25,000 nucleotides of DNA from Phycisphaerales bacterium (GTDB lineage: Bacteria > Planctomycetota > Phycisphaerae > Phycisphaerales > SM1A02). Location: the NCBI GenBank assembly GCA_029248335.1, contig JAQWJM010000050.1:1-25000 (forward strand). Direction: 5' to 3'. Made by a program: the position numbers and the translations under genes. A model generated the notes under the pieces. The model worked only from the letters and a program-made list of their open reading frames with translations, was not told the DNA's origin and made no database searches. Positions 4,001 to 23,425 of this stretch are shown here, one piece after another (the first letter of the stretch is position 1; every line of letters starts with the position of its first letter).

Positions 4001-4053
4001 AACGGGCGAACCCGCGACGTACCGTTCGAACCACCGTCCTCTTCCGAGCGCCG

Positions 4054-6205: not shown

Positions 6206-6216
6206 CGGCGACCGCC

Positions 6217-7194: not shown

Positions 7195-7289
7195 GTCACC
7201 GCCCCCGCGCGATCGCGGAATCACCTTCGTACCCCGCTGCAATCGATCTCATCGACCTCCGCTCACGCCCGCTCGCAAGGAATCGACCG

Positions 7290-8255
7290 ATGCCAGACAT
7301 CATTCCCGATCCCGGACCGGGAGCTCGCCGCCGTACGGCGAACAACACCGGTCGCCGAGGCGTCAACGACCTCAGCGGAAGCGTGGTCGACCGAGGCACG
7401 ACCCGTGCCGACGATCCGGCCCGTGACGGGGTTCGACTCGCGGTCATCGCGTTCACCACCTTCGCCGCGGGACTCGGCATGCTGGTGCTCGGCTGGATGG
7501 CCGAACGCGCCGGGATCGAGGCATGGCTCGGGATGGGTGAATTCGAGCGACCGATCGGCGGCACGGTGGTGACCGGCGCCCGCATGCCGGGCACCATGAT
7601 CCAGTCGCTCTACGAGGCCGGGGTCGTCGAACCGCTCTTCTTCGCGGCGGCGATGGCCCTCCTCATCCCACCCATCGCGGGCATCGTCGCGGCCCGCCCC
7701 CTGCGTCCGGGAGTCGCCGCGCCGGCCGCGGCCGCCCGGATCGCCGCGGGCATCGCCGCCGGCCTCGTGGTGGCCGCCGATGTCGCGATCGTCGCGGTGA
7801 CCATGTCGACCGTCCGTCCGACCGTCGACGACGTGGTGATCGGCGAGGACGCATGGCTCGACGCGATCCGCAACGTCGCCGCCGCCGACACCGTCGCCGC
7901 GATCCTCGCGATCCTGCTCGCGGTGCTCGTGTTTCGAATGCCGCTCGATCGCTGGGCCCGTGGACTCGTCGGTGCGATCGCGATCACCGCCGCGGTCCTC
8001 GCGACCGGCACCGCCGCCGGAAGCGCCGGCACCCTCGACTTCCTGCAGTCCGAACGGCCCGTGGTGGTGCCCCGCGGCTGGACGGGTGGAACCTCGCTCG
8101 ATCTGGGCCGGACGCCGGGGGGCGGCATGGCGACGATCGACCGGAGTCTCGACGCGAAGCCTGTCCTCTCGCGGCGCATCTCCCCCGTCGAACGGATCAC
8201 CGTTCCGGGCACGATGTCGATCGCGGAGCTCGTCGCCGCCCCGATTCCCGATTGA
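7290..8255 (+). CDS. Hypothetical Ala-rich polytopic membrane protein
   Basis: It has an AAGGAA SD 8 nt upstream and strongly GC-biased third positions. Several hydrophobic helices are present (LAVIAFTTFAAGLGMLVLGW, LFFAAAMALLIPPIAGIVAA, VAAILAILLAVLVF). No known motif was recognised. Confidence 0.55.
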   Translation: MPDIIPDPGPGARRRTANNTGRRGVNDLSGSVVDRGTTRADDPARDGVRLAVIAFTTFAAGLGMLVLGWMAERAGIEAWLGMGEFERPIGGTVVTGARMPGTMIQSLYEAGVVEPLFFAAAMALLIPPIAGIVAARPLRPGVAAPAAAARIAAGIAAGLVVAADVAIVAVTMSTVRPTVDDVVIGEDAWLDAIRNVAAADTVAAILAILLAVLVFRMPLDRWARGLVGAIAITAAVLATGTAAGSAGTLDFLQSERPVVVPRGWTGGTSLDLGRTPGGGMATIDRSLDAKPVLSRRISPVERITVPGTMSIAELVAAPIPD

Positions 8256-8852
8256 TCAGACGCCGCCGGCTCCGCGGCCGTATCGATCGATCGCCTGCGT
8301 GACGGCCTGATGGACCGCGAACGGATCGTCGACCGCCTCCCAGAGGGCGTCGAGGGTCCCCGTGCCCGCGGTGGCGAACGCGATGGTTCCGAGACCGAAC
8401 AGACGCTCGCGCACCAGTCGGAGCACCGACGTCTGCTGGATCCGGTCGAGTCGCGCCTCGAAGACGTCGACCTGGAAGATTCCGCGACGACGGATCACGC
8501 GACGATCGGTGAGCACGTACAGACGATTCATCCAGTCGAGGAACTGCCAGACCAGCCGGATGCCCGCGAGCAGCAGGCCGAGTCCGAAGGCCTGTGACTC
8601 CGTCCATCCGGTCCACTCGAACCGGGCCCCCCACGCCAGCGCGAAGACCATGCCGGCGATGACCCCGAGGGCGCCGATGGACCAGAGTCCGACCATCCAG
8701 AGGCTGGGGCGGACGACCATGAGCACCGTCTCGCCGTCCGAGAGCAGCGACGCGACCGGCGCGGGCGGCGCCTCGATCGAGATCGACGCCTCCGCCTCGC
8801 CCCCGAACGGGATCCGGGCCGGTCGATCCGACGTCGGTCGGTCGACGCTCAC
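8256..8852 (-). CDS. Membrane protein with a bacterial PH (bPH_2/YdbT-like, DUF304) domain
   Basis: Two TM helices are followed by YVLTDRRVIRRRGIFQVDVFEARLDRIQ, typical of bPH_2 domains. The start codon (GTG) overlaps the hpt stop in a GTGA arrangement. Confidence 0.6.
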   Translation of the reverse strand: MSVDRPTSDRPARIPFGGEAEASISIEAPPAPVASLLSDGETVLMVVRPSLWMVGLWSIGALGVIAGMVFALAWGARFEWTGWTESQAFGLGLLLAGIRLVWQFLDWMNRLYVLTDRRVIRRRGIFQVDVFEARLDRIQQTSVLRLVRERLFGLGTIAFATAGTGTLDALWEAVDDPFAVHQAVTQAIDRYGRGAGGV

Positions 8853-9400
8853 TCGACCACCTCGGGCTTGAGGACGCCGATGAACGGAAGGTTCCGGTAG
8901 AGCCCGTCGTAATCGAGTCCGTAGCCGACGACGAAGGCGTCGGGAATCTCGAAGCCGATGAGATCCGGTCGGAGATCGACCTCGTACCGGGAGGGCTTGG
9001 CGAGGAGCACGCAGATCGTGACGCTCGCGGCGCCGCGTTCCCGCACCAGTCGATCCAGCAGGCTGAGGGTGTTGCCGGTGTCGAAGATGTCGTCGACCAG
9101 CACGATGTGCTGTCCTTCGAGATTCTCAGGCACCGCACCCCGGATCCGGGCCCCCCTCGACTCGGTGGTCGCACCGGCGTAGCTCGAGATGGTGACCACG
9201 TCGAGTCGCATCTTCTGGGGAAGCTGGCGGATCAGGTCGGCGGTGAACACCAGGCTGCCGGTGAGCACCGGTACGAGCACCACCGGTTCATCCCGCTCGG
9301 CGAGCGGCGACAGGCGACGACCGAGTTCGGCGGCGATCTCCTCCACCCGGCTGGCGATCACGTCCGAGGCGAGCAGGATTTCCGAGAGTTCGTCGTGCAT
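8849..9400 (-). CDS. hpt: Hypoxanthine-guanine phosphoribosyltransferase
   Basis: VLVDDIFDTGNTL is the PRPP-binding motif. Length is 183 aa. The N-terminus MHDELSEILLASDVIASRVEEIA is typical of Hpt. Confidence 0.9.
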   Translation of the reverse strand: MHDELSEILLASDVIASRVEEIAAELGRRLSPLAERDEPVVLVPVLTGSLVFTADLIRQLPQKMRLDVVTISSYAGATTESRGARIRGAVPENLEGQHIVLVDDIFDTGNTLSLLDRLVRERGAASVTICVLLAKPSRYEVDLRPDLIGFEIPDAFVVGYGLDYDGLYRNLPFIGVLKPEVVE

Positions 9401-9491
9401 GTCGCGTCCCTGCGTTCGAGATCGTGTTCGGGGGTCGGGTCGGTTCCGGCGACGACACCGAAGCCTGTGAATCGCGGATGAATCGGCGGCA

Positions 9492-11045
9492 TCAGCCTCG
9501 GAGCAGATCGAAGAGTCGCTTTCGAACGTCCTGCGCGTCGGCCTGTCCGCCCGACGCCTTCATCACCGCACCGACCAGTCGGCCGATCGCGGCATCCTTC
9601 CCGTTTCGAACGTCCTCGGCGGCCTGCGGCTGGGCGACCACCGCGTCGGCGAGCCACTGATTGATCGCGGACTCGTCGCGTACCGCCACCAGATCGTTCG
9701 CTTCCGCGAGGGACGCGATCGGTTCCGGGGAATCCGCCGCGAGTTCGAGCAGCGGATCGATCGCCTGCGCAGGCAGGGTGCCGTCCCGACGAAGTGCGAG
9801 CAGATCGGCGATCTGATTCGCATTGATGCCGAGGTCCGGGACGCCGATACCCTGTTCGTTCGCCCGCTTCGCCATCTGGTTGAGGAGCAGCTTCGCGGCC
9901 TCGTGCCCCGCGGCCGAGGCGGGCGGCGGCACGGGCAGCGACGCCTGGGCGTCGACCACGCGTTCGAAGTAGAGACACAGTTCGCGATCCTCGACCAGGG
10001 CCGCCGCGTCCTTCTCGGGGAGACCGAAGTCGTCCCGGTACCGCGCCCGTCGGGCGATCGGCAGCTCGGGGATCTCCGCCCGGATCCGATCCTTCCACGC
10101 CTCGTCCATCTCGACCGGGAGCAGGTCCGGCTCCGGGAAGTAGCGATAGTCGTGGGCGTCCTCCTTCTCCCGCTGCAGCACGGTGACCAGACGCTCGTCG
10201 TCCCAGCCGCGGGTCTGCTTCATCCCCATGCCCATCACCCGCCCGGTCTCGAGGAACTCGTCGATCTGACGCTCCATCTCGTGCCGGATCGCGCCTTCGA
10301 CCGCGCGGAAGCTGTTGAGGTTCTTGATCTCGATCACCGGCGTCCGGAACTCCCGACCGTCCGTGGTGTCGATGACCAGGTTGATGTTCGGCTCGAACCG
10401 CATGTGCCCCTTCTGCATCACGCCCTCGGTGACCCCGAGGAAGCGACAGAGGGTGCGGAGTTCGCGCGCGAAGATCACGACGTCCTCGGGGCAGTCGAAG
10501 TCGGGCTCGGTGACGATCTCGAGCAGCGGCGTGCCGGCCCGGTTCAGGTCGACGAGACTTCCCGCGAACCGACCACCACCCGGGAGATCGTGCCCGAGCT
10601 TGCCGGTGTCCTCCTCGAGGTGCGCCCGCGTGATCCCGATGCGACGCATGCCGCCGTCGGCATCGGAACTCGACGACGGGATGTCGACCGCCCCGTCGAA
10701 GCAGAGCGGCAGGTCGTACTGGCTGATCTGGTAGCCCTTGGGGAGATCCGGGTACGCGTAGTTCTTGCGATCCCACTTCGCATGCTCGGCGATCGAGCAG
10801 CCGAGGGCCATCCCGACCTTCGCGGACATCTCGACCGCGTGCCGGTTCATCACCGGCAGGGTGCCCGGCAGGGCCGCGACCAGGGGATCGACGAGGGTGT
10901 TCGGTTCCGCGTCCTCGAACTCCGGGCAGGCCGGATTGGCGGCTCGCGTGAACATCTTCGACCGGGTCGAGAGTTCCACGTGGATCTCGAGGCCGACGAT
11001 GAGTCGGGTCGAGGCGATATCGTCTCTGGTGAGGCCGGTCTTCAT
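9492..11045 (-). CDS. gatB: Asp-tRNA(Asn)/Glu-tRNA(Gln) amidotransferase subunit B
   Basis: N-terminal VGLEIHVELSTRSKMF and the C-terminal YqeY-like tail (AIGRLVGAVMKASGGQADAQDV) are present. Length is 517 aa. It sits upstream of hpt on the same strand. Confidence 0.95.
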   Translation of the reverse strand: MKTGLTRDDIASTRLIVGLEIHVELSTRSKMFTRAANPACPEFEDAEPNTLVDPLVAALPGTLPVMNRHAVEMSAKVGMALGCSIAEHAKWDRKNYAYPDLPKGYQISQYDLPLCFDGAVDIPSSSSDADGGMRRIGITRAHLEEDTGKLGHDLPGGGRFAGSLVDLNRAGTPLLEIVTEPDFDCPEDVVIFARELRTLCRFLGVTEGVMQKGHMRFEPNINLVIDTTDGREFRTPVIEIKNLNSFRAVEGAIRHEMERQIDEFLETGRVMGMGMKQTRGWDDERLVTVLQREKEDAHDYRYFPEPDLLPVEMDEAWKDRIRAEIPELPIARRARYRDDFGLPEKDAAALVEDRELCLYFERVVDAQASLPVPPPASAAGHEAAKLLLNQMAKRANEQGIGVPDLGINANQIADLLALRRDGTLPAQAIDPLLELAADSPEPIASLAEANDLVAVRDESAINQWLADAVVAQPQAAEDVRNGKDAAIGRLVGAVMKASGGQADAQDVRKRLFDLLRG

Positions 11046-11121
11046 GCGATCCGCATTCTACGGTTCAATGGCGACCGCACCAGCATCGTGCCCGATCGAC
11101 CGGCCACCCGGAGGCGAGAAC

Positions 11122-12327
11122 ATGCCAGGACCGAAGAACCAGTTTCCGACCCGATCGATCCTCGCCGGCGTGCTGGCGATCGTCACGCTCGCCACGAGCC
11201 CGGACGGCATCGCCGCCGGCCCGACGGCCGCGACCCCGGATGTCGGACGGATGACCATCGACGGAGATCCGCTCCGACCGAACGCCCTCTACAACCGGAT
11301 CGGACGACCGATTCCGGTGGTGTTGTCACTCCGTGGCCGGACCGAGGTGCCCGAGGACGGGTTCGACCTCGTGCTCCTGGCCCCGGACGGCACCGTCCTC
11401 GCCAGCGCGATCGGCGGCGCCGCCGGCGAATTCGATCTGCTGGAAGCCCTTCCCGCCATCGCCGACCTGACCACCACCGCCCGGGTCCAGGTCATCGCGG
11501 ACGGCATCGCGACGGGGTCGCCGCTGGTGATCCAACCGATGGTCGGTCGAACGCCGGTCCGCACCACCCGCGACTATCGCCCCGGAACCACGGACCAGTA
11601 CACGCGGATCATCGGCTTCGGCGAGGAACTCCTCGATCCCGACGACGCCTCGGACGTCGCGGTCCTCGAGCGGGCGAAGGCCGCCCCCGACTGGGATCCG
11701 GGTGAGCCGCCGGTGCTGACCGGATTCCGGATCTTCCCCGACCGCGACGTGCTGGTCGACACGACCCTCGGTCCGATCCGGGTCGCCCTCGCGCCGGAAG
11801 CCGCCCCGAACACCGCGTGGAACTTCCGGCACCTCGCGGAAAACGGTTTCTACGACGACACCACCTTCCACCGAGTGGTCCACTTCGACCGCACCGGTCG
11901 ACGATTCGTGATCCAGGGCGGCGATCCGAGCGGCACCGGCAACGGCAGCGCGGGTTGGGATCTCCCGATGGAACGATCCACGCTGCCGCACGACCTCGGC
12001 GTCATCTCGATGGCCCGGGCCGATCATCCCGACAGTGCGGGCAGCCAGTTCTTCTTCTGCCTCGGACGCCCGGGCACCGCCCGGCTCGACGGTCAGTACT
12101 GCGCCTTCGGCTACGCGGTGGAGGGCGACAAGGCGATCGCGGACATCGCGGACGTCGAGATCGAGGACGTCGCCGCGGGAAGACCGACCGAGCCGCCGGA
12201 GATCACGCGGATGACCCTCGTCCCCGCGCCGCCGCAGACTCCCGGCGACGATCGCGCCGAACGCCGGATCCAGTCGTGGTGGACGCCCGAAGTCGTCGAC
12301 GAACCCGAGACGCGTCAGCCGCGATAG
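11122..12327 (+). CDS. Secreted cyclophilin-type peptidyl-prolyl cis-trans isomerase with a ~230-aa N-terminal domain of unknown function
   Basis: GGAGG sits 7 nt upstream of ATG 11122. A signal-like helix (ILAGVLAIVTLATSP) follows. The C-terminal half carries cyclophilin motifs (FHRVVHFDRTGRRFVIQGGDPSGTGNGSAG, SMARADHPDSAGSQFFFCL). The ORF track extends to 10765, but that stretch is antisense to gatB. Confidence 0.85.
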   Translation: MPGPKNQFPTRSILAGVLAIVTLATSPDGIAAGPTAATPDVGRMTIDGDPLRPNALYNRIGRPIPVVLSLRGRTEVPEDGFDLVLLAPDGTVLASAIGGAAGEFDLLEALPAIADLTTTARVQVIADGIATGSPLVIQPMVGRTPVRTTRDYRPGTTDQYTRIIGFGEELLDPDDASDVAVLERAKAAPDWDPGEPPVLTGFRIFPDRDVLVDTTLGPIRVALAPEAAPNTAWNFRHLAENGFYDDTTFHRVVHFDRTGRRFVIQGGDPSGTGNGSAGWDLPMERSTLPHDLGVISMARADHPDSAGSQFFFCLGRPGTARLDGQYCAFGYAVEGDKAIADIADVEIEDVAAGRPTEPPEITRMTLVPAPPQTPGDDRAERRIQSWWTPEVVDEPETRQPR

Positions 12328-12444
12328 AACGCGGGTCGACGGATGATTCCCGTCCCGACCGCGAGGCTCCCGAGACGGAAACCCCGAGTGGGACGGAATC
12401 CGATCGTCGCACGCGACTCGCCACCGTCACCACCGGACCTGCGT

Positions 12445-14082
12445 TCAGTCCGCGGTCTCCCCGTCGCCTTCACCCGAGGACTTCGGCCGCCTCGGGTTGA
12501 CCACGGTCGGTGAGCCGAGCCCGCCGGTGATGATCGTGGGATTCCCCGGCCCGTCGCTCTCCGCCTTCGCCACGTTGACCGCGGCGTTGGCTTCGAGACT
12601 CGCCTTGAGGACCCGCTCCATCTGGGCGGAGTGCTTGTCGTTTCGCTGGCGTTCCTGTTCGAGCTGGCGACGAAGCAGATCCGCGATCTCCTCGCTGTTC
12701 CGCCCTTCGACCTTCCAACGTTCCGCCAGCGCCGCGGCGACCGCGGGGCTGGTCTCCGCCGCCATCGCCAGCAACTGGTCGGGCGACATGCCCTTCTGCT
12801 TCTCGAGCCGTTCGAGCTCGAGCAGCGCCTCGCTGTCACCGAGGCCGAGCGCGATCTTGGTGGCGGTATCGGCCTCCGCGACCGTCTTCATCCGCTCGCG
12901 TTCGAGTTCGACGTCCTGCATCTTCTTCCGGCGACGGGCATCGAGCGTGTCTTCGCGGATCTTCTTCGCGAGTTCCCAGTCCTTGGCGTCCCCGTCGCGG
13001 CCGACGTCCCGGGCCTGTTCGTCGGCCTTCGCGGTCTCGATCCTGGCTTCGAGGAACGCGACGAGATCGGCCGCCTCCTCCACCCGCTCGTGCTCCCGCT
13101 GCGATTCGTCCAGCGCCTGCTCGTGATCCGACGCCGACTTCTCGCGTCGTTGCTCACTCGTCTGTTCGAACGCCAGCGCGTCGGACTCGAGGCTTGCCTC
13201 GAGCCGGGCGAGTTCGTCGCCTCGAAGCGTGTCCTTCAAGCCGAGTTCGTGGGTCGCCTGGTTGATCCGCTCCCTCAGATCGACCTCGTGACTCCGCTTC
13301 TCCGCCACCTTCTCGCGGACCCGCCGAAGCACGTCGATCTTGGCTTCCTGGAAGTCCGCCTCGTTCTCGTATCGATCGACGAGCGTCTCCCTGGAACGAC
13401 GATCACGATCGCGATCGACGGTCTCCAGACTGTTGCCGATCTCGGCGTCGACGCGGCGCCCACGGACTTCGTCATAGCGTTCGGATTTGACGGTCGTCAC
13501 GCTGACCGCGACGACGTGGAACCCGAAACGCTCGAGGCTCACGGCCAGACGTGACTGCAGCTGCCGCTGCGTCTCGCCTCGAAGCGCGGGATTCCCGTAG
13601 AGATCCTCGATCGGATGGATCCCGGTGAATGCGAGCAGCGCGTCGAGAATCTCCGGATGGAGATGCGACTTGAAGTCGTCGAGCAGATACCGCCGGCGAT
13701 CCTTCATGACGTTCTGGTAGAAGGCCTCCGGCTGGTCGAGTCGGACCACCAGTCGCACGCCCATCTCGAGTTCGATGTGCTCGGCGCTCGCGAGATTCTC
13801 GATCTCGAAATCCATCGACACGTCGCCCGCATCGGTCAGGATCAGCGCGGTCGGATCCTTTCCGCGGAGGAACTTCCGAAGCGGACCGTCGACGTCGTGT
13901 TCGCCGGCCTCGAGCCGGCCCTGCAGGACGCCGCACTCGAAGATGATGGCCTCCGTGCCCTCGTACACCACGTAGGGCTTGTTGCCCCACACCGTGGCGA
14001 CGTCCTCGGCTTCGATGCGGATCGCGAGATCGTTCGGTTCACGTTCCCAGCGATCACTCTTCGGCTTGCTGAACCAACCCAT
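12445..14082 (-). CDS. SPFH/band-7 domain protein with a long C-terminal coiled coil (flotillin-like)
   Basis: ATG 14082 is preceded by GGAAGGAG. The N-terminal ~200 aa fit the SPFH pattern (DVSMDFEIENLASAEHIELEMGVRLVVRLDQPEAFYQNV ... HPEILDALLAFTGIHPIEDLY). After that the sequence is E/R/A/L-rich heptad-like. The upstream extension in the ORF track lacks an SD. Confidence 0.65.
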   Translation of the reverse strand: MGWFSKPKSDRWEREPNDLAIRIEAEDVATVWGNKPYVVYEGTEAIIFECGVLQGRLEAGEHDVDGPLRKFLRGKDPTALILTDAGDVSMDFEIENLASAEHIELEMGVRLVVRLDQPEAFYQNVMKDRRRYLLDDFKSHLHPEILDALLAFTGIHPIEDLYGNPALRGETQRQLQSRLAVSLERFGFHVVAVSVTTVKSERYDEVRGRRVDAEIGNSLETVDRDRDRRSRETLVDRYENEADFQEAKIDVLRRVREKVAEKRSHEVDLRERINQATHELGLKDTLRGDELARLEASLESDALAFEQTSEQRREKSASDHEQALDESQREHERVEEAADLVAFLEARIETAKADEQARDVGRDGDAKDWELAKKIREDTLDARRRKKMQDVELERERMKTVAEADTATKIALGLGDSEALLELERLEKQKGMSPDQLLAMAAETSPAVAAALAERWKVEGRNSEEIADLLRRQLEQERQRNDKHSAQMERVLKASLEANAAVNVAKAESDGPGNPTIITGGLGSPTVVNPRRPKSSGEGDGETAD

Positions 14083-14102
14083 GGGGAGCTCCTTCCAGAC
14101 GC

Positions 14103-14810
14103 TCAGTGCTTGAGGTTTCTTGACTTCAGGGCGAGCGCGAGTCTGCGCCGGGAGAAGAGGAGTACGACGGCCAGGCCGCAGCCGACCACCGTACCGGAGA
14201 TCACCGTGGGAACGAACCATGGATCGTCGACCCAGTCCCTTCCCAGTCCCATCGCGAGCGTGGCGGGATCGATCGGGACGGAACCGTCCCCGATGAAGAC
14301 CGCGGACTCGCCGGTCGTGGGATCCGACGTGGTCACTTCGATCCTCGCCTGCGCCGCCAGTCCGCTCTCGTCGATCCGCGCGTATCGAACCCGCCCCCAG
14401 GCGATCACCCCCGGACCGTCCGACGCGACATATTCCAGCACCCGGCTCGCGATCGCCTCGTCGTCATCGACGTCCACCGGATCCGCCCCGCCTCCACTCG
14501 TCGATCCGAGGTCGATCCGTCGGATGCTCCGTCGCCCGGACGCCGCGGTCAACGCGGCTTCGAAGGTGACGGTGGTCATGCCCTCGGCATCACCGAAGAG
14601 CGGCAACACCGCGACGAGTTCGAGCCCCGCGGGCAGGCCCTGCATGATCTTCCCCGCGACGTCGTCGGCCGCGAGCCGCGTCGCGGATTCGATGGCCTGC
14701 CGCGATCCGGGCGGACCGTCGACGACCGGGGTCTGACCGGCGTTCGCCGAGGCCCCGACCAGAAGCAGCAGCGCGAAGACCGTTCGAATCCCTGCATCGA
14801 GTCGCTTCAT
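14103..14810 (-). CDS. Hypothetical secreted/membrane-anchored protein (N-terminal signal peptide, C-terminal TM helix); operon partner of the SPFH gene
   Basis: ATG 14810 is preceded by GAGGGAG. It reads MKRLDAGIRTVFALLLLVGASANAG (signal peptide) and ends with a C-terminal TVISGTVVGCGLAVVLLF helix. There is a 20-nt gap to the SPFH gene start, and a 4-nt overlap with the upstream HTH gene. Confidence 0.5.
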   Translation of the reverse strand: MKRLDAGIRTVFALLLLVGASANAGQTPVVDGPPGSRQAIESATRLAADDVAGKIMQGLPAGLELVAVLPLFGDAEGMTTVTFEAALTAASGRRSIRRIDLGSTSGGGADPVDVDDDEAIASRVLEYVASDGPGVIAWGRVRYARIDESGLAAQARIEVTTSDPTTGESAVFIGDGSVPIDPATLAMGLGRDWVDDPWFVPTVISGTVVGCGLAVVLLFSRRRLALALKSRNLKH

Positions 14811-15169
14811 CGTGAATCTCCCTCGTTCGTCGGTACCGGCGACGCCTGTCGTCTGCCGGCATCCCAGGCTGATTTCCGGATCGGCGCCCCGGTATCGATC
14901 GCATAGCCGCCGATGTCCAGCGCACTCATGATCCGCTCGCCGGTCACGCAACATCGGACCTCCTGAAGCGGGACCAGGGGGCGGCCGATCTCGGAAGCGA
15001 CCGCCTGCTTCGTCGAATCGAAATACGCCTCGAGATCGGTCCGGCTGACCCGGTAGACCCGACCGACCTTCCCGGCGGCGAGATCACCCTTGCGGACCAG
15101 GCGGTAGACCGTCTTGTAATCGACGCCGAGGATCTCCGCTGTTTCTTCGAGACTGAGCAGTTGTTGCAT
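14807..15169 (-). CDS. Excisionase-family helix-turn-helix DNA-binding protein with a ~65-aa C-terminal extension
   Basis: LSLEETAEILGVDYKTVYRLVRKGDLAAGKVGRVYRVSRTDLEAYF matches the excisionase/MerR-like HTH_17 pattern. It is the first gene of the minus-strand operon. Confidence 0.7.
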   Translation of the reverse strand: MQQLLSLEETAEILGVDYKTVYRLVRKGDLAAGKVGRVYRVSRTDLEAYFDSTKQAVASEIGRPLVPLQEVRCCVTGERIMSALDIGGYAIDTGAPIRKSAWDAGRRQASPVPTNEGDSR

Positions 15170-15381
15170 GAAAGGGCTCCTGCGAGAATCCCATCAACTT
15201 GAGGCTCTCGTACCCTTGTTTGGACTCTCTTGCCCCCGCTTTCATCCTTTCGACCGAAATCCGGCCGACGCGGGCGATCAGGGGCCGGAACGCCGAGAAT
15301 GGGGTTTGAACACCGATCGATGCAGGCACCGGGACGACCGTTCCCACCCATATCATCCCGAATCGAGACAGGTCTCCACGA

Positions 15382-16743
15382 ATGAAAGAGTTCGAGTCCC
15401 CGATAGAAATCACGTTCGACGTGAGCCGGATCTACAAGGAACGGCTCGCGGACGTCGCGTCGTTCCGGTTTCGAAATCGGGCCGATGAGCGTTTTCATCT
15501 CGTCGTCAATCTGAGAAGTCGGATCTTCTCCCGCCCGGTCGAAGTCGATCTCAAGCTCGGACCGGCGCAGGTCCGGACGCATCGAATCCCGCTGGAGCTG
15601 CCGTGCCGCGAGACGTGCTCCGAAGGCCGGGGCAGTTCGGGCCGCCATCCCATCCAGATCATGCTCCTGATCTCCGAGGGAGACACGCCGAACGACGAAC
15701 GACACGCCTTCACCGGCGAGAAGATGACCATGGTCCTGGAGGACGACGCCAGTCCCCGGACCATCGTGAACCACATCAACGTGAAGATCGAGCAGCATGG
15801 CGACAAGGCCGGCTGGGGCGCGATCAACGAGATCAACATGCCGGCGGCCGAGATCCAGGACGATCCTGAATCGAACAACGATTTCCTTGAACGACTGAGC
15901 ACGCTTCCTCCCGCGTTCGAGCCGATCCCGCTCGACTACGAAGGCGTGATGGACGCGTCCCGGACCGCGATTCCCTCGATCGTCGACCGCAGTCCCTCGA
16001 CGCCGACGCTCGATCGATGCGCCATCGACCGACCACGAAGCCGCTCGCGGATCCTCGCCCTGACCGGGCGTTCCATCAACTTCGGCAAACGGCGGAAGGA
16101 CGTCGACGTCACCACCTGGCACCTGCCGCGGACGAGTTCCAACGACGAACGAACGAAGCGGATCTCCGGGGTGCAGTGTCGACTGGAGATGACCGGTGAG
16201 GGCATCTGCCTCGAGCATCTTTCCGCCACCAACCAGACCCGCCTCGACGATGTCTCCGTGAAGCAGAGAACGCCGATCGACCTCCATGGAATCTCGAACC
16301 TGCATCTGCCCGGGGGCTTCCAGCTCGAGTTGATCCCGCAACACGTTCCTGCCACCTTCGCGCAACACGCCACCGCCTGGCGTCGCCTCGGTGACGCCAC
16401 CTTCCAGGAGGCGTGCCGCTGGTCCGAGAGGACCCACATCGGCGGCCTCCTGATCCGACGCACCGATGCCCTCCGCTCGGTCGAGGAGTATCTCTGGATC
16501 CTTTCCGCGATCGCGGCGCCGCGATGCGGAGACGACCTGCCTCCGTTCACGCTCGCCGCCATCGAGGGCCTCCACGTCTTCGCGATCGGCTCGGGCAACG
16601 GCGCCACCATTCGAAACGCGGACGACGACGCCCCGATGCTCGAGAACGCCGCCTGTCGACTGGCGATCGACGACTCGGTCGCCTGGGACGACGGACGGCT
16701 CGAATTCAACGAATGGCGACAGTCCGGCCTCGACGACGACTGA
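15382..16743 (+). CDS. FHA (forkhead-associated, phosphothreonine-binding) domain protein; N-terminal 250 aa of unknown function
   Basis: RISGVQCRLEMTGEGICLEHLSATNQTRLDDVSVKQRTPIDLHGISNLHLPGGFQLEL fits the FHA consensus (SRxHa..., LeDLgStNGT, L.dGD.i.lG). Third codon positions are GC-biased. The antisense ORF 14944..16884 is low-complexity. Confidence 0.65.
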   Translation: MKEFESPIEITFDVSRIYKERLADVASFRFRNRADERFHLVVNLRSRIFSRPVEVDLKLGPAQVRTHRIPLELPCRETCSEGRGSSGRHPIQIMLLISEGDTPNDERHAFTGEKMTMVLEDDASPRTIVNHINVKIEQHGDKAGWGAINEINMPAAEIQDDPESNNDFLERLSTLPPAFEPIPLDYEGVMDASRTAIPSIVDRSPSTPTLDRCAIDRPRSRSRILALTGRSINFGKRRKDVDVTTWHLPRTSSNDERTKRISGVQCRLEMTGEGICLEHLSATNQTRLDDVSVKQRTPIDLHGISNLHLPGGFQLELIPQHVPATFAQHATAWRRLGDATFQEACRWSERTHIGGLLIRRTDALRSVEEYLWILSAIAAPRCGDDLPPFTLAAIEGLHVFAIGSGNGATIRNADDDAPMLENAACRLAIDDSVAWDDGRLEFNEWRQSGLDDD

Positions 16744-16905
16744 CCGGACCGCGACCGGAACCCGTGTGCTCGACGCGGATGGAGCGTCACAGGCGAGCTT
16801 CGCAAGACGTGATGATCTTCTCATCGTCGGGCTCCGCGGGTCGCGGTCGGGAGAAGGGGTGTCGATCCACCGAAGTGCCCGCACCCCGGATGGACGATGC
16901 TCGCC

Positions 16906-19900
16906 CTAGGAGCCGTCGCCCGCCGATGCGACGTTCACCTTCGATTCGAAACCGGCATTCGCCGTCTCCGAGGACCGACCGGGATCGGCACTCGATCCGG
17001 GCTCGGTCTCGTCACCGCGAGCGACCGTGGAGATCCTCACGCGGAGGCCTTCGGGCGGCGTGCACTGGCCGGACGGATTGGACCCCCAGCCGACGACCGA
17101 GCCGTCCGACAGGAGAGCGATCGTGTGGTCGCCGCCCGCGGCCACGCTCGCCACCGGATTCTCCGGCGTGCCGATCCCCGGAGGGACGTCGCACTGACCG
17201 TAGTTGTTCCCGCCCCAACACGCGACCGAGCCGTTCGCGAGCACGGCCACGGTGTGGTTGTCTCCCGCCGACACGGTCGCGACGGGGTTCTCCGGCGTGC
17301 CGATCCCGTCCGGAACATCGCACTGACCGGGTCCGTTGTAACCCCAGCAGACGATCGAGCCGTTCAACAGCACGGCGACGGTGTGGGAACTTCCGGCCGC
17401 CACGTTCGAGACCGGATTCTCCGGAGTCCCGATTCCGCTCGGGACGTCGCACTGGCCGATGAGGTTGTTCCCCCAGCAGACGACGGAACCGTCCGCCAGC
17501 AGCGCGACGGTGTGGCGGGTACCCACGGCGACTCGATCCACGGGATTCTCAGACGTGCCGACCCCCTCCGGAACGTCGCACTGGCCGGAGCCGTTGAAGC
17601 CCCAGCAGACCACCGAACCGTCCGCAAGCAACGCGACGGTGTGGAAGTAGCCCGCGGCCGCGCTCGCGACCGGGTTCTTCGCCGTGCCGACCTGGATCGG
17701 CACGTCGCACTGGCCGTCGTTGTTGCCGCCCCAGCAGGTGACCGAACCGTCCGCGGACACCGCCACGGAATGGGAGCCGCCCGCCGCCACCTTCATCACG
17801 GCGTTGTCGTTCGAGCCGATTCCTTCGGGGACGTCGCACTGGCCGTCCTGGTTGCCGCCCCAGCACGCGATCGTGCCGTCTTCGACGACGGTCACGGTGT
17901 GCACGCCACCGGCGGAGATCCGACCGATGTTGGCGGTGATCCGTTCGTGGCCGGCATCGAGACGGGCCGCTTCGATCTTGGCCGCTTCGAAACGCCGATC
18001 CAGCACGATCTTCGTCAACGCCGCCCGGCGATCATCGAGATTCGTCTTCGCGGCGAGTCGCGCGACGTCGGCGAGCTCGAACTTCAATCGCGAAAGGTCG
18101 CACTGTCCCTCGTTGTTACCGCCCCAGCTGGAGACCGAGCCGTCGGCCAGCACCGCGATGGTGTGGGCACCACCGGCGATGACGCTCGCCACCGGACGAT
18201 CCGGCGTGCCGATCTCGACCGGAATCGTGCACTGGCCCGAGTTGTCTCGTCCCCACGCCGCGAGCGAGCCGTCCATGAGCAGGGCGACGGTGTGATCGTC
18301 ACCCGCGGTCACGCTCGCGACCGGATTCTTCGCGGTGCCGACCTTCGTCGGGACGTCGCACTGGCCGTGCTCGTTGTCACCCCAGCAGACGACCGAACCG
18401 TCCGCGAGGACCGCGACCGAGTGCTCCGCGCCCGCGATCACGTTCGCGACGGGATTTCGAGGCGTGCCGATGTCGACCGGCACATCGCACTGCCGAGCCG
18501 TGTTGCGTCCCCAGCAGGCCACCGAACCATCCGCGAGCACCGCGATGGTGTGGTCATCGCCCGCGGCCACGCTCGCGACCGTGTTCTCCCCCACTCCGAT
18601 TCCTTCCGGAACGTCGCACTGTCCATCGACGTTCTGCCCCCAGCAGGCGACGGAACCGTCCTTGAGCATCGCCACGGTGTGATAGCGGCCGGGAACCACG
18701 CTTGCGACCGGATTCTCCAGCGTGCCGATTCCCTCCGGCACCTCGCACTGGCCGTGGTCGTTGTATCCCCAGCAGGCCACCGAGCCGTCCGCGAGCAGGG
18801 CGACGGTGTGATGGCGGCCCGGTTCGACGCTCAAGACGGGATTCTCCGGCGTCCCGATTCCGCGTGGAATCTTTCGTTCGCCGAAGTAGTTGAAGCCCCA
18901 GCAGCCCTTCGGACCGAGCGAGCCGTCGGAAAGAACCGCGACCGTGATATCCCCGCCGGCGGCGATCGACCGCACGGGAAGCGGCATGAACCACCAGAAC
19001 GCGAACGTACCGATCGCCGCGAGCGTGGTGACGAAGGCGACCGATCGGCCGACACGACGCCGCCTCAGCGCCGCGACGTGGCGGGCGTTCCCGACGGTCC
19101 GGCGATGCGCTTCCAGCGCCTGCGACCATCGCTTGCGATTCGTCAACGCGATCTTGCGCAGTTCGATCGCGCCCGCCCGCGCTTCCTCCCACGCCAGCGC
19201 CGTCACGTGCAGATCGACCTGATCCATGAGGTCCGATTGCCGCGTCATTCCGTCGCTCAGGGCCGGGTTCCGTTCGCCACCGGAACCGATCTCCTTGATC
19301 AATCCCCTGGTATCGGCGACGATCACGTCGATCTCCGGACGCAGTCCCAGGTACTCCTGCCGCGCCTTCGAGGTCTTCCGAATCCAGGCGCAGTGCTTGT
19401 CCACGAGGCCGCGAACGGATCTCGTCGTGGACAGCACGCCCATCCAGTCACCTGCTTGCGTCTGAGCTTTCACCCGGGCGTCGAGGCTGATCCGCTTCGC
19501 CCGGAACTCCTCGAACCGCGATCGGCCGCCCAGCGCGGTCTCCGTCTCGCAGGAGATCAGTTCCTCGTCGAGATGGGCGATCTGCGCACGGACCTTCATG
19601 ACCTTCCGATGGACGGTGAGCACGCCCTCGGACCAGGCGACGTGTGATTCGATCAGATCACGCAACGTCGACAGCGTCGCTTCCGCCTTTATCCACTCGC
19701 CCTCGCCGATCTGACGCGAGAGATCCTCGTCCAGCTTCGCTCGCCCGGAACGGAACTCCCGGGTCTTGGCCACTTCGCTCAGATCGACTCGAAGATCGAT
19801 CTCCGCGATTCGGGCGTCGCATTCCTTGATCTCTTCGCGAAGCGTCTCGGTTCGCTGTCGAATGTCCGAGATCTGTCTCAGACGCGACCGTTGTGCTTCG

Positions 19901-21504
19901 GCCTGGGTGTGGAGATCACTGGCGGTGGCTCGTGCCTCGAGCCACGCCTGCGAGGTCATCTCCGTCTCCAGTCGATCCTTCAATTCAACGCGATTCGACC
20001 GATACGCCACGATCTTCGGATCGGAATCGTGATCCGACTCGCTCTCGAGCGAACCGAGGTCACCATCGATCCGATCGACGTCGGCGATGAAACGAATCAC
20101 TTCCTCGCGGGCCGTGCGCAGCGAACGCACCCACTTCCGATGCGTCGACACCGGCTCGATGATGGCCTTTGCGGTCTGACACGCGGACGACCAGTCCAGG
20201 GCACCGACTTCCTTCTCGAGACGTCGATCGAGCTCCGTACGATTCGTCTTGTAGGCCTGCGAACGAGGCAGTTCATGCAGATCAAGTCCCACGCGATCCG
20301 CATTCAGCCCCTTGTCGATCTCCAGAATGTCCGCCCGCAGTCGCCGGAAGGCGTCATAGGGCGCGCGTGCCGACTGGATCTCTTCGTAGAGTCCGCACGC
20401 CCGCTCGAGAATCGCCGCCGCATCCGACCAGAGCCGGCCGAGCTTGTTCTCCTTCGCCGACTCGAGAAAATGACCAGCTCGCTCGAATTTCGCCATATAG
20501 GCCTGCGGAAGCGGCTCGCCTTCCTCCAGGACCCGCTTCGCCTCGCGACCCAGGATCCGCACCCGACTCTCGAGATCCACGAGATCGGCGGCGCTGCGAG
20601 GCGACCCATCCGAAGGCTGGGGCGAGGCGCTGCGGGCGGTCTTCGGCCGGGGAGCGGCGGCGCTTCCCTCGAACTGGAAGAACGCCTTGCACGACCTCGG
20701 TCGATCGGCGGGATCCTTCGAGAGGCCATTCATCAGGAGTTCCGAGATCTCCAGCCCCTCGAGCTCGCGAGGCATGTCCGGAATCTCCTCGAGGATCTGG
20801 TGCCGAAGGTCGCCACGACTGAACGGTGGCTCGCCCGAGAGGCACTCCCACATCGTCGCCGCGAGGCTGTAGATGTCCTGCGCCGCGGCGGGTTTTCGTC
20901 CCCGAAGCTGTTCCGGCGACATGTAGGGCAGCGTCCCGGAGTTCGACTCCCGGCCCGTCAACAACGTCGAAGTCTCCTTCGCCTCTCGCGCGATTCCGAA
21001 ATCCATGATGAGCGGCGTGCCGTCGTCACGGATCATGATGTTCGAGGGCTTCACGTCGCGATGGATCACACCGCGACGGTGCGCGTAGTCGAGCGCCTCG
21101 CCGATCGGGCCGAAGACCCGGACCACTTCGGATTCGTCCATCCGGTCGCGGTCCACGAGGATCTCCTCGATCGACTGCCCGTCGACGTGATCCATGACGA
21201 GGAAAGGCTGGCCTGAATCCATCTCCTCGAAGCCACGCACCGTCACGACGTTCGGGTGCGAGAGCTCCATGGCGTGGAGCGCTTCTCGCTTCAATCCGGC
21301 GATCGCCCGCTTGTTCGCCGCGAGAAACGAGGGAAGCAGTTTCACCGCGAACAGACGGTCGTCGAGCTTGAGATCCTCGACCAGATGCACTTCGCCCATT
21401 CCGCCGGCGCCGAGACGGCGGACCACGCGATACCGACCGGCAAGCAACGGGTGCTTGCCTTCGGGAATCGTCTGGCCGAACTGGTCGGGAGCGGGGGCGG
21501 ACAT
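16906..21504 (-). CDS. Receptor-type Ser/Thr protein kinase (1532 aa): kinase domain, ~6 helical ~80-aa repeats, one TM helix, two 7-bladed RCC1-like beta-propellers
   Basis: Kinase motifs are GAGGMGEV (Gly loop), AVKLL (VAIK), HRDVKPSN, DFGIA and SPE. The TM helix is VAFVTTLAAIGTFAFWWFMPLPV. The RCC1 unit HTVALLADGSVxCWGxNxxGQCDVP occurs 14 times. The most plausible start is the Met 20 codons inside the longest ORF (MSAPAPDQ...). Confidence 0.9.
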   Translation of the reverse strand: MSAPAPDQFGQTIPEGKHPLLAGRYRVVRRLGAGGMGEVHLVEDLKLDDRLFAVKLLPSFLAANKRAIAGLKREALHAMELSHPNVVTVRGFEEMDSGQPFLVMDHVDGQSIEEILVDRDRMDESEVVRVFGPIGEALDYAHRRGVIHRDVKPSNIMIRDDGTPLIMDFGIAREAKETSTLLTGRESNSGTLPYMSPEQLRGRKPAAAQDIYSLAATMWECLSGEPPFSRGDLRHQILEEIPDMPRELEGLEISELLMNGLSKDPADRPRSCKAFFQFEGSAAAPRPKTARSASPQPSDGSPRSAADLVDLESRVRILGREAKRVLEEGEPLPQAYMAKFERAGHFLESAKENKLGRLWSDAAAILERACGLYEEIQSARAPYDAFRRLRADILEIDKGLNADRVGLDLHELPRSQAYKTNRTELDRRLEKEVGALDWSSACQTAKAIIEPVSTHRKWVRSLRTAREEVIRFIADVDRIDGDLGSLESESDHDSDPKIVAYRSNRVELKDRLETEMTSQAWLEARATASDLHTQAEAQRSRLRQISDIRQRTETLREEIKECDARIAEIDLRVDLSEVAKTREFRSGRAKLDEDLSRQIGEGEWIKAEATLSTLRDLIESHVAWSEGVLTVHRKVMKVRAQIAHLDEELISCETETALGGRSRFEEFRAKRISLDARVKAQTQAGDWMGVLSTTRSVRGLVDKHCAWIRKTSKARQEYLGLRPEIDVIVADTRGLIKEIGSGGERNPALSDGMTRQSDLMDQVDLHVTALAWEEARAGAIELRKIALTNRKRWSQALEAHRRTVGNARHVAALRRRRVGRSVAFVTTLAAIGTFAFWWFMPLPVRSIAAGGDITVAVLSDGSLGPKGCWGFNYFGERKIPRGIGTPENPVLSVEPGRHHTVALLADGSVACWGYNDHGQCEVPEGIGTLENPVASVVPGRYHTVAMLKDGSVACWGQNVDGQCDVPEGIGVGENTVASVAAGDDHTIAVLADGSVACWGRNTARQCDVPVDIGTPRNPVANVIAGAEHSVAVLADGSVVCWGDNEHGQCDVPTKVGTAKNPVASVTAGDDHTVALLMDGSLAAWGRDNSGQCTIPVEIGTPDRPVASVIAGGAHTIAVLADGSVSSWGGNNEGQCDLSRLKFELADVARLAAKTNLDDRRAALTKIVLDRRFEAAKIEAARLDAGHERITANIGRISAGGVHTVTVVEDGTIACWGGNQDGQCDVPEGIGSNDNAVMKVAAGGSHSVAVSADGSVTCWGGNNDGQCDVPIQVGTAKNPVASAAAGYFHTVALLADGSVVCWGFNGSGQCDVPEGVGTSENPVDRVAVGTRHTVALLADGSVVCWGNNLIGQCDVPSGIGTPENPVSNVAAGSSHTVAVLLNGSIVCWGYNGPGQCDVPDGIGTPENPVATVSAGDNHTVAVLANGSVACWGGNNYGQCDVPPGIGTPENPVASVAAGGDHTIALLSDGSVVGWGSNPSGQCTPPEGLRVRISTVARGDETEPGSSADPGRSSETANAGFESKVNVASAGDGS
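17052..18972. repeat. Tandem ~130-bp coding repeats (14 RCC1-like blades in two blocks, split by a ~55-aa helical insert at ~17922..18084)
   Basis: The antisense motif gtcgcactggcc (GQCD) recurs every ~129-132 nt. Other-frame ORFs repeat peptides such as GTSHWP and QQTTEPSA. Confidence 0.7.
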
Positions 21505-21842: not shown

Positions 21843-22346
21843 TCAGGCGGTCTCGACGGCCTTGATGCCACCGGTCATGCGAGGCATCTCGCCTTCGGGG
21901 AAACCGTTGCCGTCCTTCTTGACGCCCGCGATCGCCTCGACCACGTCCATGCCGTCGATCACCTTGCCGAAGGCGGTGTACTCACCGTCGAGGTGCTGGC
22001 AGCCGCCGCGGCTCAGGCAGATGAAGAACTGGCTGCCCGCGCTGTTGGGATCCGCGGAGCGGGCCATCGACAGGACGCCTTCCTCGTGCTGCTTGTCGTT
22101 GAACTCGGCGTTGACGTTGTAGCCGGGGCCGCCGGTGCCGGGCATCCCGTTCGCGCCTTCCTTGGTGTTCGGGCATCCGCCCTGGATCACGAAGTTGTCG
22201 AGGATCCGGTGGAAACCGAGACCGTCGTAGAAGCCCTTCGCACCGAGGTCGAGCATGTTCTTGACGTGATTGGGCGCCACGTCGTCCCACAGCTCGACGG
22301 TGATGGTGCCCTTGTCGGTTTCGATGATTGCCTGGGGGTAGGCCAC
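21843..22346 (-). CDS. ppiB: Peptidyl-prolyl cis-trans isomerase, cyclophilin type (PpiB-like, 168 aa)
   Basis: FHRILDNFVIQGGCP, SMARSADPNSAGSQFFICL and GEYTAFGKVIDGMDVV are cyclophilin motifs. The preferred start is GTG 22346 (MAYPQAIIETDKG) with GGAGA 8 nt upstream. The longer ORF to 22601 adds an unlikely Arg/Pro-rich leader. Confidence 0.85.
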   Translation of the reverse strand: MAYPQAIIETDKGTITVELWDDVAPNHVKNMLDLGAKGFYDGLGFHRILDNFVIQGGCPNTKEGANGMPGTGGPGYNVNAEFNDKQHEEGVLSMARSADPNSAGSQFFICLSRGGCQHLDGEYTAFGKVIDGMDVVEAIAGVKKDGNGFPEGEMPRMTGGIKAVETA

Positions 22347-22444
22347 GGCGGTCTCCAGATACGGGTTTGAAAATGCGAGCGGAAAGGATATCAGGACGGA
22401 CGAGCCGTCCGGCGGCGGATGAAGGGGAATCCCTCCAGACCCCG

Positions 22445-23425
22445 TCAGGGACCGATGCTTCGGCCTTCGGTCGGCGTGCGAACCGCGGTCGGAAGCAGGT
22501 AGTTGCGGCCCTGATACATGGTGACGACCCCGCTCAGGAGCACCGCGGAGCCGACGCCGGCCTGCCGGGTCCGGCGGATCAGCCGTTCGAGTTCGAGACA
22601 AGGCAGCAACTGGACGCTCGATCCACCGCCCTGACGACCGGTGCCCTCCAGCACGAATCTCCAGATCCCGCTCGCCGGGTCGCGAACCACCCGGCCTCGT
22701 CGCTGCACGAAACGCGTCCCCGCCTTCAACGCGGCGGGCTCGGTGGGCGGCGCCGCCAGCACGTCGAGGCTTCGAGGAACCGCACCGATCCGCGACTCCA
22801 GTCGCGACTCGATCTCCGAAGCGTAATCACGCTCCTCGAGCGGATCCGAACCATCGGGATCGGTCGCGGTCTCCGACGTCGCCGCGGCTGGAACGGTCTG
22901 ATCGACCGGTTCGTTCCCGGTCGCATCCTCGTCGGTTCGACGGACCGGCACGATCGCGCCGGGAAGCAGGAAGTTCCTGCCTTGGAAGACGAGGACCTTC
23001 CCGGTCACCTCGTAGATCCCGGCGGTGGGATTGCCGCGCGCCGAAGCCGGCTGAACCGACTCCAACCGAACCAGGTCGTCGAGGCCTCGACTCGGGAGAA
23101 GAATCAACTCGCGACGGATGCCGCCGGTCGCGGTGGCGAGCGGTCGATAGACGTGGACGCCGAGCTCCGCGTCGCGTTCGATCTCCCCTTCGACCTTGAC
23201 CAGAAACCCACCCTCCCGAAGGAGTGGCGGCCGTCCGCCCCGGTCGACGTCATCGGGAATGACCACGCGCCTCGTGGGTGCGGTGATCCTCGAGTCGTCG
23301 GAGGGGGGCGTGGCGTCGGGATCCTGTCCCACGACGGGTGTCGCGAGACCGCATGCGAGCAGGGCCGGCAACGCGGCCGCGAGGAGTCCGAAGGGTCGAG
23401 ACTGAGGAGATCGCATCGTGCTCAT
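22445..23425 (-). CDS. Hypothetical secreted protein (possible lipoprotein) with an internal duplication
   Basis: It begins with a signal peptide and LLAC (MSTMRSPQSRPFGLLAAALPALLACG). Two related segments (VTGKVLVFQGRNFLLPGAIVPV and VLLSGVVTMYQGRNYLLPTAVRT) each follow G-rich or acidic linkers. Third positions are GC-biased. Confidence 0.55.
   Translation of the reverse strand: MSTMRSPQSRPFGLLAAALPALLACGLATPVVGQDPDATPPSDDSRITAPTRRVVIPDDVDRGGRPPLLREGGFLVKVEGEIERDAELGVHVYRPLATATGGIRRELILLPSRGLDDLVRLESVQPASARGNPTAGIYEVTGKVLVFQGRNFLLPGAIVPVRRTDEDATGNEPVDQTVPAAATSETATDPDGSDPLEERDYASEIESRLESRIGAVPRSLDVLAAPPTEPAALKAGTRFVQRRGRVVRDPASGIWRFVLEGTGRQGGGSSVQLLPCLELERLIRRTRQAGVGSAVLLSGVVTMYQGRNYLLPTAVRTPTEGRSIGP

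Follow-up and report, generated by a model that had tools for sequence, protein, structure and literature searches.

FHA proteins encoded beside Ser/Thr kinases are a familiar theme in bacteria, and adjacency of this kind is in itself ordinary. In Mycobacterium tuberculosis, the kinase-adjacent FHA proteins include FhaA and FhaB with PknB, the tandem-FHA transporter Rv1747 with PknF, and EmbR with PknH, while in Pseudomonas aeruginosa the PpkA-Fha1-PppA threonine phosphorylation pathway belongs to the H1 type VI secretion system (T6SS). In Sulfolobus, ArnA, composed of a Zn ribbon and an FHA domain (the FHA domain being PDB entry 5a8i), is accompanied by ArnB and the kinases ArnC and ArnD. Here, we describe an FHA protein of 453 amino acids (aa), hereafter the adaptor, encoded next to a Hanks Ser/Thr receptor kinase in a Phycisphaerales bacterium of the Planctomycetota (assembly GCA_029248335.1, contig JAQWJM010000050.1, positions 1 to 25,000); the window designates this whole stretch of 25,000 nucleotides (nts). 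[quoted passage not shown]

The closest contextual parallel in the literature searched is provided by archaeal FHA/kinase ESCRT loci. In the Halo_FHA loci, genes for Vps4, ESCRT-III and Ser/Thr kinases and phosphatases accompany that of the arCOG13166 FHA protein (Makarova et al. 2024, PMC10936438), and the Meth_adaptin loci combine Zn-ribbon SPFH proteins with Ig-like adaptin domains (PMC10936438). In bacteria, a survey of PspA/Snf7 neighbourhoods describes SPFH/Band-7 proteins, often with a Zn ribbon, encoded with the ESCRT-III-superfamily protein PspA and AAA+ ATPases, as in ydjFGHI(L) of B. subtilis, and relates them to sub-membrane dynamics (Ravi et al. 2024, PMC11237479). The survey names Band-7 and AAA+ partners and no FHA component, the term FHA being absent from its text; the kinases in the passages considered are histidine kinases, and Vps4 in bacteria is presented as sporadic transfers only (PMC11237479). 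According to a 2025 review, a Vps4-like ATPase appears to be absent in bacteria (PMC7619361). Literature searches for an FHA/SPFH/kinase module or for a Planctomycetota Snf7/Vps4 module found no description of either.

The adaptor is a fixed component of a conserved Planctomycetota module, which comprises one kinase orthogroup, an HTH_17 DNA-binding protein, a periplasmic anchor and an SPFH protein devoid of transmembrane (TM) segments. Our preferred reading, towards which we lean with slight confidence, is that the adaptor is a phospho-dependent, non-enzymatic protein coupling the receptor kinase to the SPFH membrane scaffold. In the window, the module is organized as follows:

12445 to 14082, minus strand: SPFH/Band_7 protein of 545 aa, counted from MGWFSKP, with a long coiled-coil tail (PF01145, E 2.9e-9)
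14103 to 14810, minus strand: exported protein of 235 aa, which has a signal peptide and is anchored by a C-terminal TM segment
14807 to 15169, minus strand: HTH_17 (excisionase/MerR-type) DNA-binding protein of 120 aa, first gene of the operon (PF12728, E 8e-17)
15170 to 15381: divergent spacer of 212 bp between the HTH and adaptor genes
15382 to 16743, plus strand: adaptor gene, ATG start, 453 aa, with an Ig-like domain, FHA1 and a degenerate FHA2
16744 to 16905: convergent spacer of 162 nts, from the adaptor stop to the kinase stop
16906 to 21504, minus strand: Hanks Ser/Thr receptor kinase (Pkinase E 4e-41, RCC1_2 E 8e-111, WD40_RLD E 4e-110)

An initial annotation had placed the 453-aa adaptor frame at these positions on the plus strand, convergent with a Hanks kinase across 162 nts and divergent from an HTH, membrane protein and flotillin operon across 212 bp. 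Both spacers are exact, Pfam and NCBIfam scans of the window genes recover the named neighbours, and the frame itself is upheld by the open reading frame (ORF) call, by codon-position GC and by the ratio of nonsynonymous to synonymous substitution rates (dN/dS). In this high-GC stretch (~67% GC), the adaptor has a codon-position GC of 0.63/0.47/0.81, the same pattern as the surrounding real genes, and a dN/dS against orthologues of 0.16-0.27 at 98-99.6% nucleotide identity and of 0.17 at 69%. Such values mark the adaptor ORF as a real and constrained gene of the expressed type. An Arg-rich antisense ORF of 646 aa (14944 to 16884, minus strand) spans the whole adaptor gene and was rejected as a high-GC shadow, because it fails the codon-position GC filter that selects real genes.

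The adaptor is predicted to be cytoplasmic, with no TM or hydrophobic segment in a hydropathy scan and no enzymatic domain. Its close homologues number just 11, all from Phycisphaerae or metagenomes, the closest being P0001 (99% identity), a hypothetical protein (CMJ22_09545) of a Phycisphaerae metagenome-assembled genome (MAG). A profile search of 1.84 billion representatives retrieved 364 relatives, of which 174 reach E<=1e-10; in most cases the alignment covers the full length, and full-length alignments with the adaptor reach E values of 1e-30 to 1e-208. This family of ~360 representative sequences is uncharacterised so far.

To follow the neighbourhood, 23 related loci (L001 to L023) were compared, close-family profile scans of genomes and metagenomes having given 5 and 4 loci, respectively, and a word-indexed profile search having contributed little more; in L007, L010 and L011 the sequence is too short for kinase linkage to be assessed. 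Ten independent near-family lineages have a Hanks kinase next to the adaptor homologue or at most ~3 kb away from it, and the linkage reaches down to 31% protein identity despite rearrangement. The initial annotation had proposed that synteny in related genomes be checked, and kinase orthologues do co-occur with this FHA gene, since ten lineages keep the kinase near it, in the following arrangements:

Window, L016 and L017: kinase convergent with the FHA gene
L001: kinase convergent, tail-anchored and without RCC1
L003, L004/5/9, L006 and L008: kinase divergent from the FHA gene
L012: kinase convergent, with the SPFH and kinase genes on one strand
L013/14: kinase divergent, two genes intervening
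L015: FHA gene flanked by kinases on both sides
L018/19: kinase divergent from the FHA gene

A kinase is also linked in the wider-family loci L021 and L023. Over the stretch visible, eight of the ten lineages have linked kinase domains that share 44-72% identity with that of the window. For the L015 kinases the identity is 31-37%, and Pfam alone recognises the fragment in L006; for comparison, other kinases of the same loci reach 31-33% identity to the window kinase domain. The sensor domains vary among RCC1, FG-GAP, FGE-sulfatase and none. That the adaptor should be a chance neighbour, lying merely between a kinase gene and an SPFH operon, might be suggested by the many kinases that Planctomycetes can carry and by the commonness of FHA domains; this reading, to which we give almost no weight, is effectively refuted by the synteny of ten independent lineages that keep the kinase, mostly of one orthogroup, along with recurring SPFH and HTH genes. 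Partnership of the adaptor with the kinase, and its membership of the module, are thus strongly supported by synteny.

In L021 (positions 764-16562), a 6,398-bp unit occurs three times on contig ctg90749c, either because it was amplified in tandem or because a small circular element was misassembled; the unit contains the FHA-family gene along with a gene of 280 aa and two kinase-FGE-sulfatase genes. L009 and L010 come from the same MAG (Arabian9_MAG_66) and represent two adaptor paralogues, one beside a kinase and the other beside HTH_17. A reverse-transcriptase gene adjoins the L010 copy, and transposase fragments flank the L008 copy.

The second constant partner is the HTH/anchor/SPFH operon. 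Orthologues of its three genes recur in L001/2, L008, L012, L013, L020, L022 and L023; in L001/2, L008, L012 and L013 they form one operon with or without the kinase gene, and the HTH gene alone accompanies the FHA gene in L010; no HTH, anchor or SPFH orthologue was found within 10 kb in L015 or L018/19. The window SPFH protein, which shows no TM segment in a hydropathy scan, is 28-69% identical to the SPFH proteins of L001, L008, L012, L013 and L023. In L020 and L022, a Zn-ribbon-SPFH gene is the immediate upstream neighbour of the FHA-family gene, with both genes on one strand, and in L023 a Zn-ribbon kinase gene lies between the SPFH and FHA-family genes. The start of the exported anchor protein at 14810 overlaps the HTH stop by 4 nts, and the protein is a distant relative of the LpoB-like proteins found in the wider module. 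In the wider family taken as a whole, the SPFH operon is a partner as constant as the kinase, a point that the initial annotation did not contain; its description of a self-contained module is nonetheless fair, because the HTH, anchor and SPFH genes recur with the FHA gene and the kinase. In the wider family (L020:991-1338; L023:3594-3983), Zn ribbons are found on the HTH tail and at the N-termini of the SPFH protein, of one kinase and of the FHA protein, and all of these are lost or degenerate in the window clade. The tail of the window HTH protein (14807 to 14950, minus strand) is such a degenerate Zn ribbon, in which the CxxC...CxxC of L020 and L023 has become CCVTG...DTGAP.

HTH_17 is the best-conserved component of the module (50-57% identity between the window protein and its L023 and L020 orthologues), and the HTH-proximal ~100 nts of the divergent spacer (15170 to 15270) are 65% identical to L001 against 44% for the remainder, while the adjacent gene is almost saturated at its synonymous sites (pS 0.64). 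This part of the spacer probably serves the HTH operon as a conserved promoter or 5′ leader. The HTH protein also weakly matches the winged-HTH model of Rv2175c (E 0.005), which is a substrate of the kinase PknL in M. tuberculosis. These observations would suit a transcriptional read-out, in which the adaptor would mainly couple the kinase to HTH_17, for instance by retaining or freeing it according to phosphorylation, to control the divergent promoters of the 212-bp spacer, with the SPFH genes as the regulated output rather than as partners. However, the HTH and FHA genes are not divergently arranged in L020, L023, L012 and L008, hence the shared control region proposed initially is not a conserved feature. 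Furthermore, no operator-like palindrome or inverted repeat is evident in the spacer, and the HTH alignment shows no evident conserved Thr outside the HTH core. We consider a mainly transcriptional role improbable. Promoter, terminator and inverted-repeat scans of both spacers gave nothing above chance, and no terminator-like hairpin was detected in the 162-nt convergent spacer.

The adaptor is composed of the following parts:

15382 to 15735, plus strand: N-terminal Ig-like beta-sandwich, aa 1-118
15811 to 15831, plus strand: G-W-G-A-I-N-E motif, aa 144-150, inside a low-confidence linker (aa 119-205)
16009 to 16347, plus strand: FHA1, aa ~210-322, with hallmark positions G235, K236, S262, Q265, N284 and T286
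16348 to 16434, plus strand: two-helix linker between FHA1 and FHA2, aa 323-351 (helices 324-334 and 339-351 in the structure model)
16435 to 16716, plus strand: FHA2, aa ~352-445, a second and degenerate FHA fold

An FHA domain is present in the adaptor despite its invisibility to Pfam, and independent lines of evidence agree on it. PF00498 is matched by 58 of the 70 full-length relatives aligned from the wider family (best E 4e-30), the sample to which the residue counts below refer. The profile of the close family matches FHA sequences of Ki-67 (E 0.02) and aprataxin (E 1), and the beta-sandwich FHA fold is found in the adaptor. The motif is readable by eye as G235-K-R-R ... I-S262-G-V-Q-C-R-L ... 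S-A-T-N284-Q-T286. The FHA core first placed at residues ~255-330 thus exists as a fold, with bounds that have to be moved to aa ~210-322. The N-terminal region of ~250 aa, said to be without recognisable motif, in fact holds the Ig-like beta-sandwich revealed by structure comparison, whose structural neighbours are transglutaminase barrels, macroglobulin MG domains, PapD/MSP-type domains and domain 3 of HAP2/Fsx1.

The C-terminal ~100 residues of the adaptor are, from profile evidence, a second, degenerate FHA domain, a feature missing from the initial annotation. It aligns with FHA1 by hhalign (E 1.3e-4), and PF00498 is matched by 10 of 30 C-terminal fragments of relatives (best 1.4e-9). A profile of these fragments retrieves FHA chains in 17 of its 18 PDB matches, led by DgcB (3.4e-5) and followed by EmbR, FhaA and CHFR. 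The isolated structure model of the C-terminal third is poor (predicted local distance difference test, pLDDT, of 43), and the identification is settled by the profile searches. The architecture of the wider family is fixed, with an optional Zn ribbon, an Ig-like domain and two FHA domains; Zn_Ribbon_1 is matched by 26 of the 70 relatives, so that an N-terminal Zn ribbon is common in the wider family, and is lacking in the window protein. The order of Zn ribbon and FHA domain recalls ArnA, from which the window adaptor differs by the loss of the ribbon, by its additional Ig-like and FHA2 domains and by the lack of a vWA partner. The most invariant motif of the family, G-x-G-A-I-N-E, is located where the structure model is least confident (aa 119-205); its columns G144, G146, A147, I148 and E150 are invariant in the close-family alignment, and yet pLDDT there is 33-39. 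It is followed by an invariant N166 in an N-D-[FL]-L motif (aa 166-169), and W347-S348 is invariant in the two-helix linker.

The kinase ORF opens at a GTG at 21564 (1552 aa), and its likely start is M21 at 21504. The protein is ordered as a catalytic domain, a helical repeat region of ~500 aa, one TM segment and two RCC1 beta-propellers outside, with the following features:

21466 to 21489, minus strand: N-terminal motif PDQFGQTI (consensus P-D-[EDQ]-[FH]-x-x-T-[ILV])
20695 to 21432, minus strand: catalytic domain, aa 45-290, with activation-loop threonines in KETSTLLTG
18985 to 19041, minus strand: single TM segment, aa 842-860, from a hydropathy scan
17065 to 18927, minus strand: extracytoplasmic RCC1-repeat region, aa ~880-1500, the presumed sensor

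All catalytic motifs are present (AVK73-75, HRD168-170 and DFG188-190) and the activation loop is Thr-rich, so that the kinase looks catalytically competent from its residues. Just ahead of the kinase domain, its N-terminus reads M-S-A-P-A-P-D-Q-F-G-Q-T-I. The corresponding motif is shared by 11 linked kinases (window, L003, L006, L008, L009, L012, L013, L015a, L018 and both of L021) and is missing from the two non-orthologous kinases examined, L008-k2 and L015b. The conserved N-terminal Thr and the D-T-x-T activation loop are candidate FHA ligands, for which a docking role may be envisaged. The helical region (aa ~320-835; 19050 to 20600, minus strand) contains internal repeats of roughly 80-90 aa and is kept, at 32-36% identity, in L001, whose tail-anchored orthologue has no RCC1 propellers.

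In two distant relatives, L020 and L023, Snf7-like and Vps4-like genes belong to a co-directional cluster with HTH_17, LpoB-like, Zn-ribbon-SPFH, kinase and FHA-family genes:

L020:7908-10816: Snf7-like/Vps4-like cluster
L023:1581-3466: Snf7-like/Vps4-like cluster

The Snf7-like protein scores 29.5 bits against PF03357 in L020 (cut-off 27.3) and matches it at E 2e-5 in L023. The Vps4-like AAA ATPase shows a weak MIT match and a Vps4_C score of 22.2 for a cut-off of 21.3, and it matches CdvC/Vps4 (4lcb) over its full length at 4e-47. These loci are bacterial, and some belong to the class of the window organism, because the Snf7-like protein has homologues recorded under the names Planctomycetes, Planctomycetota or Sedimentisphaerales bacteria. 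The co-operonic Snf7 and Vps4 genes of the two relatives point to a membrane output and not to a transcriptional read-out alone. By domain set, the likeness to the archaeal loci is full in L020 and L023, which combine FHA, Ser/Thr kinase, Zn-ribbon SPFH, Ig-like, Snf7 and Vps4-like components. The present loci differ in being bacterial; in addition, the window has neither Snf7, Vps4 nor a phosphatase, and the adaptor's C-terminal domain is a second FHA rather than a CdvA-like domain. Compared to the SPFH-PspA couplings of other bacteria, the ESCRT-III-like gene is here of the Snf7 type, occurs in relatives and is absent from the window. A bolder version of our reading, which we regard as tentative and fairly unlikely, is that the adaptor would be the phospho-reader of a Planctomycetota-specific ESCRT-like system, in which the SPFH protein and a Snf7/Vps4 pair encoded elsewhere in the genome would be under the control of the kinase.

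In the coupling mechanism that we prefer, a signal perceived at the extracytoplasmic RCC1 propellers would activate the kinase, which would autophosphorylate on Thr, either in its activation loop or in its N-terminal PDEFxxT[ILV] motif. FHA1 would then dock on the kinase phosphothreonine, and the Ig-like and FHA2 surfaces would bring in or rearrange, at the membrane, the SPFH scaffold and possibly HTH_17. The physiological output is likely to be membrane maintenance or remodelling, because relatives share an operon with Snf7-like and Vps4-like genes. What is established here is the gene, with its folds, its family and its conserved neighbourhood; that FHA1 binds phosphothreonine, where it docks and what the output would be are inferred. 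The proposed arrangement resembles PpkA-Fha1, where a receptor kinase with an extracytoplasmic sensor and a non-enzymatic FHA scaffold switch on a membrane machine. It differs by the lack of T6SS genes and of a cognate phosphatase, by the Ig-like and two FHA domains of the adaptor, and by its partner, which is an SPFH protein (with Snf7/Vps4-like proteins in relatives). Compared to the mycobacterial pairs, the adaptor has no TM, ABC (ATP-binding cassette) or DNA-binding output domain; it possesses an Ig-like domain, a 12-aa insertion in FHA1, Arg to Lys and His to Gln substitutions and an SPFH operon, and no PstP-like PP2C is encoded nearby.

Several observations weigh against the coupling mechanism. 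In Rad53 FHA1, the phosphothreonine-binding residues are G69, R70, S85, H88 and N107. The phosphate-contacting Arg is K236 in the adaptor (Arg in 60 of 70 relatives, Lys in 8 of 70; Lys, Asn or Arg in the closest clade), the structural His is Q265 (His in 66 of 70, Gln in 4 of 70) and the NG pair has become NQ (Q285). A family-specific insertion of 12 residues, TWHLPRTSSNDE, placed after the G-[RK] loop and before the Ser loop, adjoins the binding loops; its pattern TWxLPRxxxND is kept family-wide, with P249 in 69 of 70 relatives. FHA2 in the window clade has neither G-R nor S-x-x-H. The adaptor itself matches no Pfam or NCBIfam family at E<=1 (nor at E<=10 in the member scan), PF00498 included, which was the profile check proposed by the initial annotation, and a search of PDB sequences with its single sequence gave nothing. 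The short contig L002 carries, directly downstream of the FHA gene, a TonB_C-like gene and no kinase. As the initial annotation had noted and the domain scans of called genes confirm, no PP2C phosphatase is encoded in the 25-kb window. PP2C families are likewise missing from the precomputed or scanned Pfam hits of the L008, L012, L013, L015, L020 and L023 genes, not every ORF of L008 and L012 having been scanned; L015 has a Metallophos gene. The reversibility of the phosphorylation is left unexplained, because PP2C was found neither in the window nor in the annotated related loci. Lastly, the Snf7 and Vps4 genes are absent from the window and from the other near-clade loci.

Alternatively, both FHA domains may have lost phosphothreonine binding in this clade, the adaptor then being a structural subunit of the SPFH-associated complex, regulated by the kinase, if at all, as a substrate. 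Such a role would agree with the three substitutions of FHA1, the tolerance of Lys or Asn at the Arg position in the closest clade, the lack of any hallmark in FHA2 and the absence of a Pfam match, as well as with the match of 44 of the 70 relatives to the Yop-YscD_cpl model and with the SPFH gene directly upstream of the FHA gene in L020 and L022. PscD, EssC and YukB are structural matches of the adaptor, and YscD/PscD of the type III and EssC/YukB of the type VIIb secretion systems likewise contain two consecutive FHA folds with degenerate phospho-binding residues. The adaptor differs from these proteins in that it has no TM, ring-building or ATPase domain, no secretion genes lie nearby, and a kinase is conserved alongside it. 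Against a structural role, kinase adjacency is kept precisely in the substituted clade, in all ten lineages. FHA1 moreover retains G235, S262, N284 and T286, and K236 preserves the positive charge; S262, N284, T286 and R238 are invariant in the near clade. Finally, the functional FHA domain of Ki-67 has N-P-T, like most of the clade. A purely structural role is, in our judgement, a serious alternative, albeit somewhat unlikely. Phosphothreonine binding by FHA1 is plausible from the residues retained, and should not be assumed because the canonical Arg is K236 and the structural His is Q265. The phospho-dependent partner of the kinase that had first been proposed is therefore supported by synteny as a partner, while the Arg to Lys and His to Gln substitutions argue for caution on the phosphothreonine reading.

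The locus was also considered as an anti-phage or conflict system built around the kinase with the HTH and FHA genes, since the kinase domain matches PD-T4-6 and mad6 of PADLOC, the HTH protein matches mad1, and transposase or reverse-transcriptase genes lie near L008 and L010. These PADLOC matches reflect generic kinase and HTH similarity, far under the NCBIfam cut-offs (141.9 for 460 and 36.4 for 80), whereas the adaptor, the anchor and the SPFH protein match no PADLOC model. The locus has no nuclease, methylase or other effector, and it is located among housekeeping genes such as gatB, metK, dnaJ and those of cyclophilins. A defence function is unsupported, and we rate it as very improbable. 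The rest of the window is composed of such genes (metK, rsmB, PTS EIIA, dnaJ, gatB, PRTase and two cyclophilins). Cyclophilin-type peptidyl-prolyl isomerase genes stand on both flanks of the module (10765 to 12327, plus strand; 21843 to 22601, minus strand), and another is located ~8 kb downstream in L023 (19994-21355), possibly by coincidence.

What sets this locus apart from known FHA-kinase pairs is an uncharacterised family of fixed architecture, a module kept through extensive rearrangement, and the Snf7 and Vps4 genes that are co-operonic with it in two distant loci. If the link to these genes holds, the module would offer a tractable case of Ser/Thr-phosphorylation control over bacterial membrane machinery of the SPFH/ESCRT-III type. 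If an ESCRT-like system under kinase control proved true, it would bear on how FtsZ-less, endomembrane-rich bacteria shape or repair their membranes.

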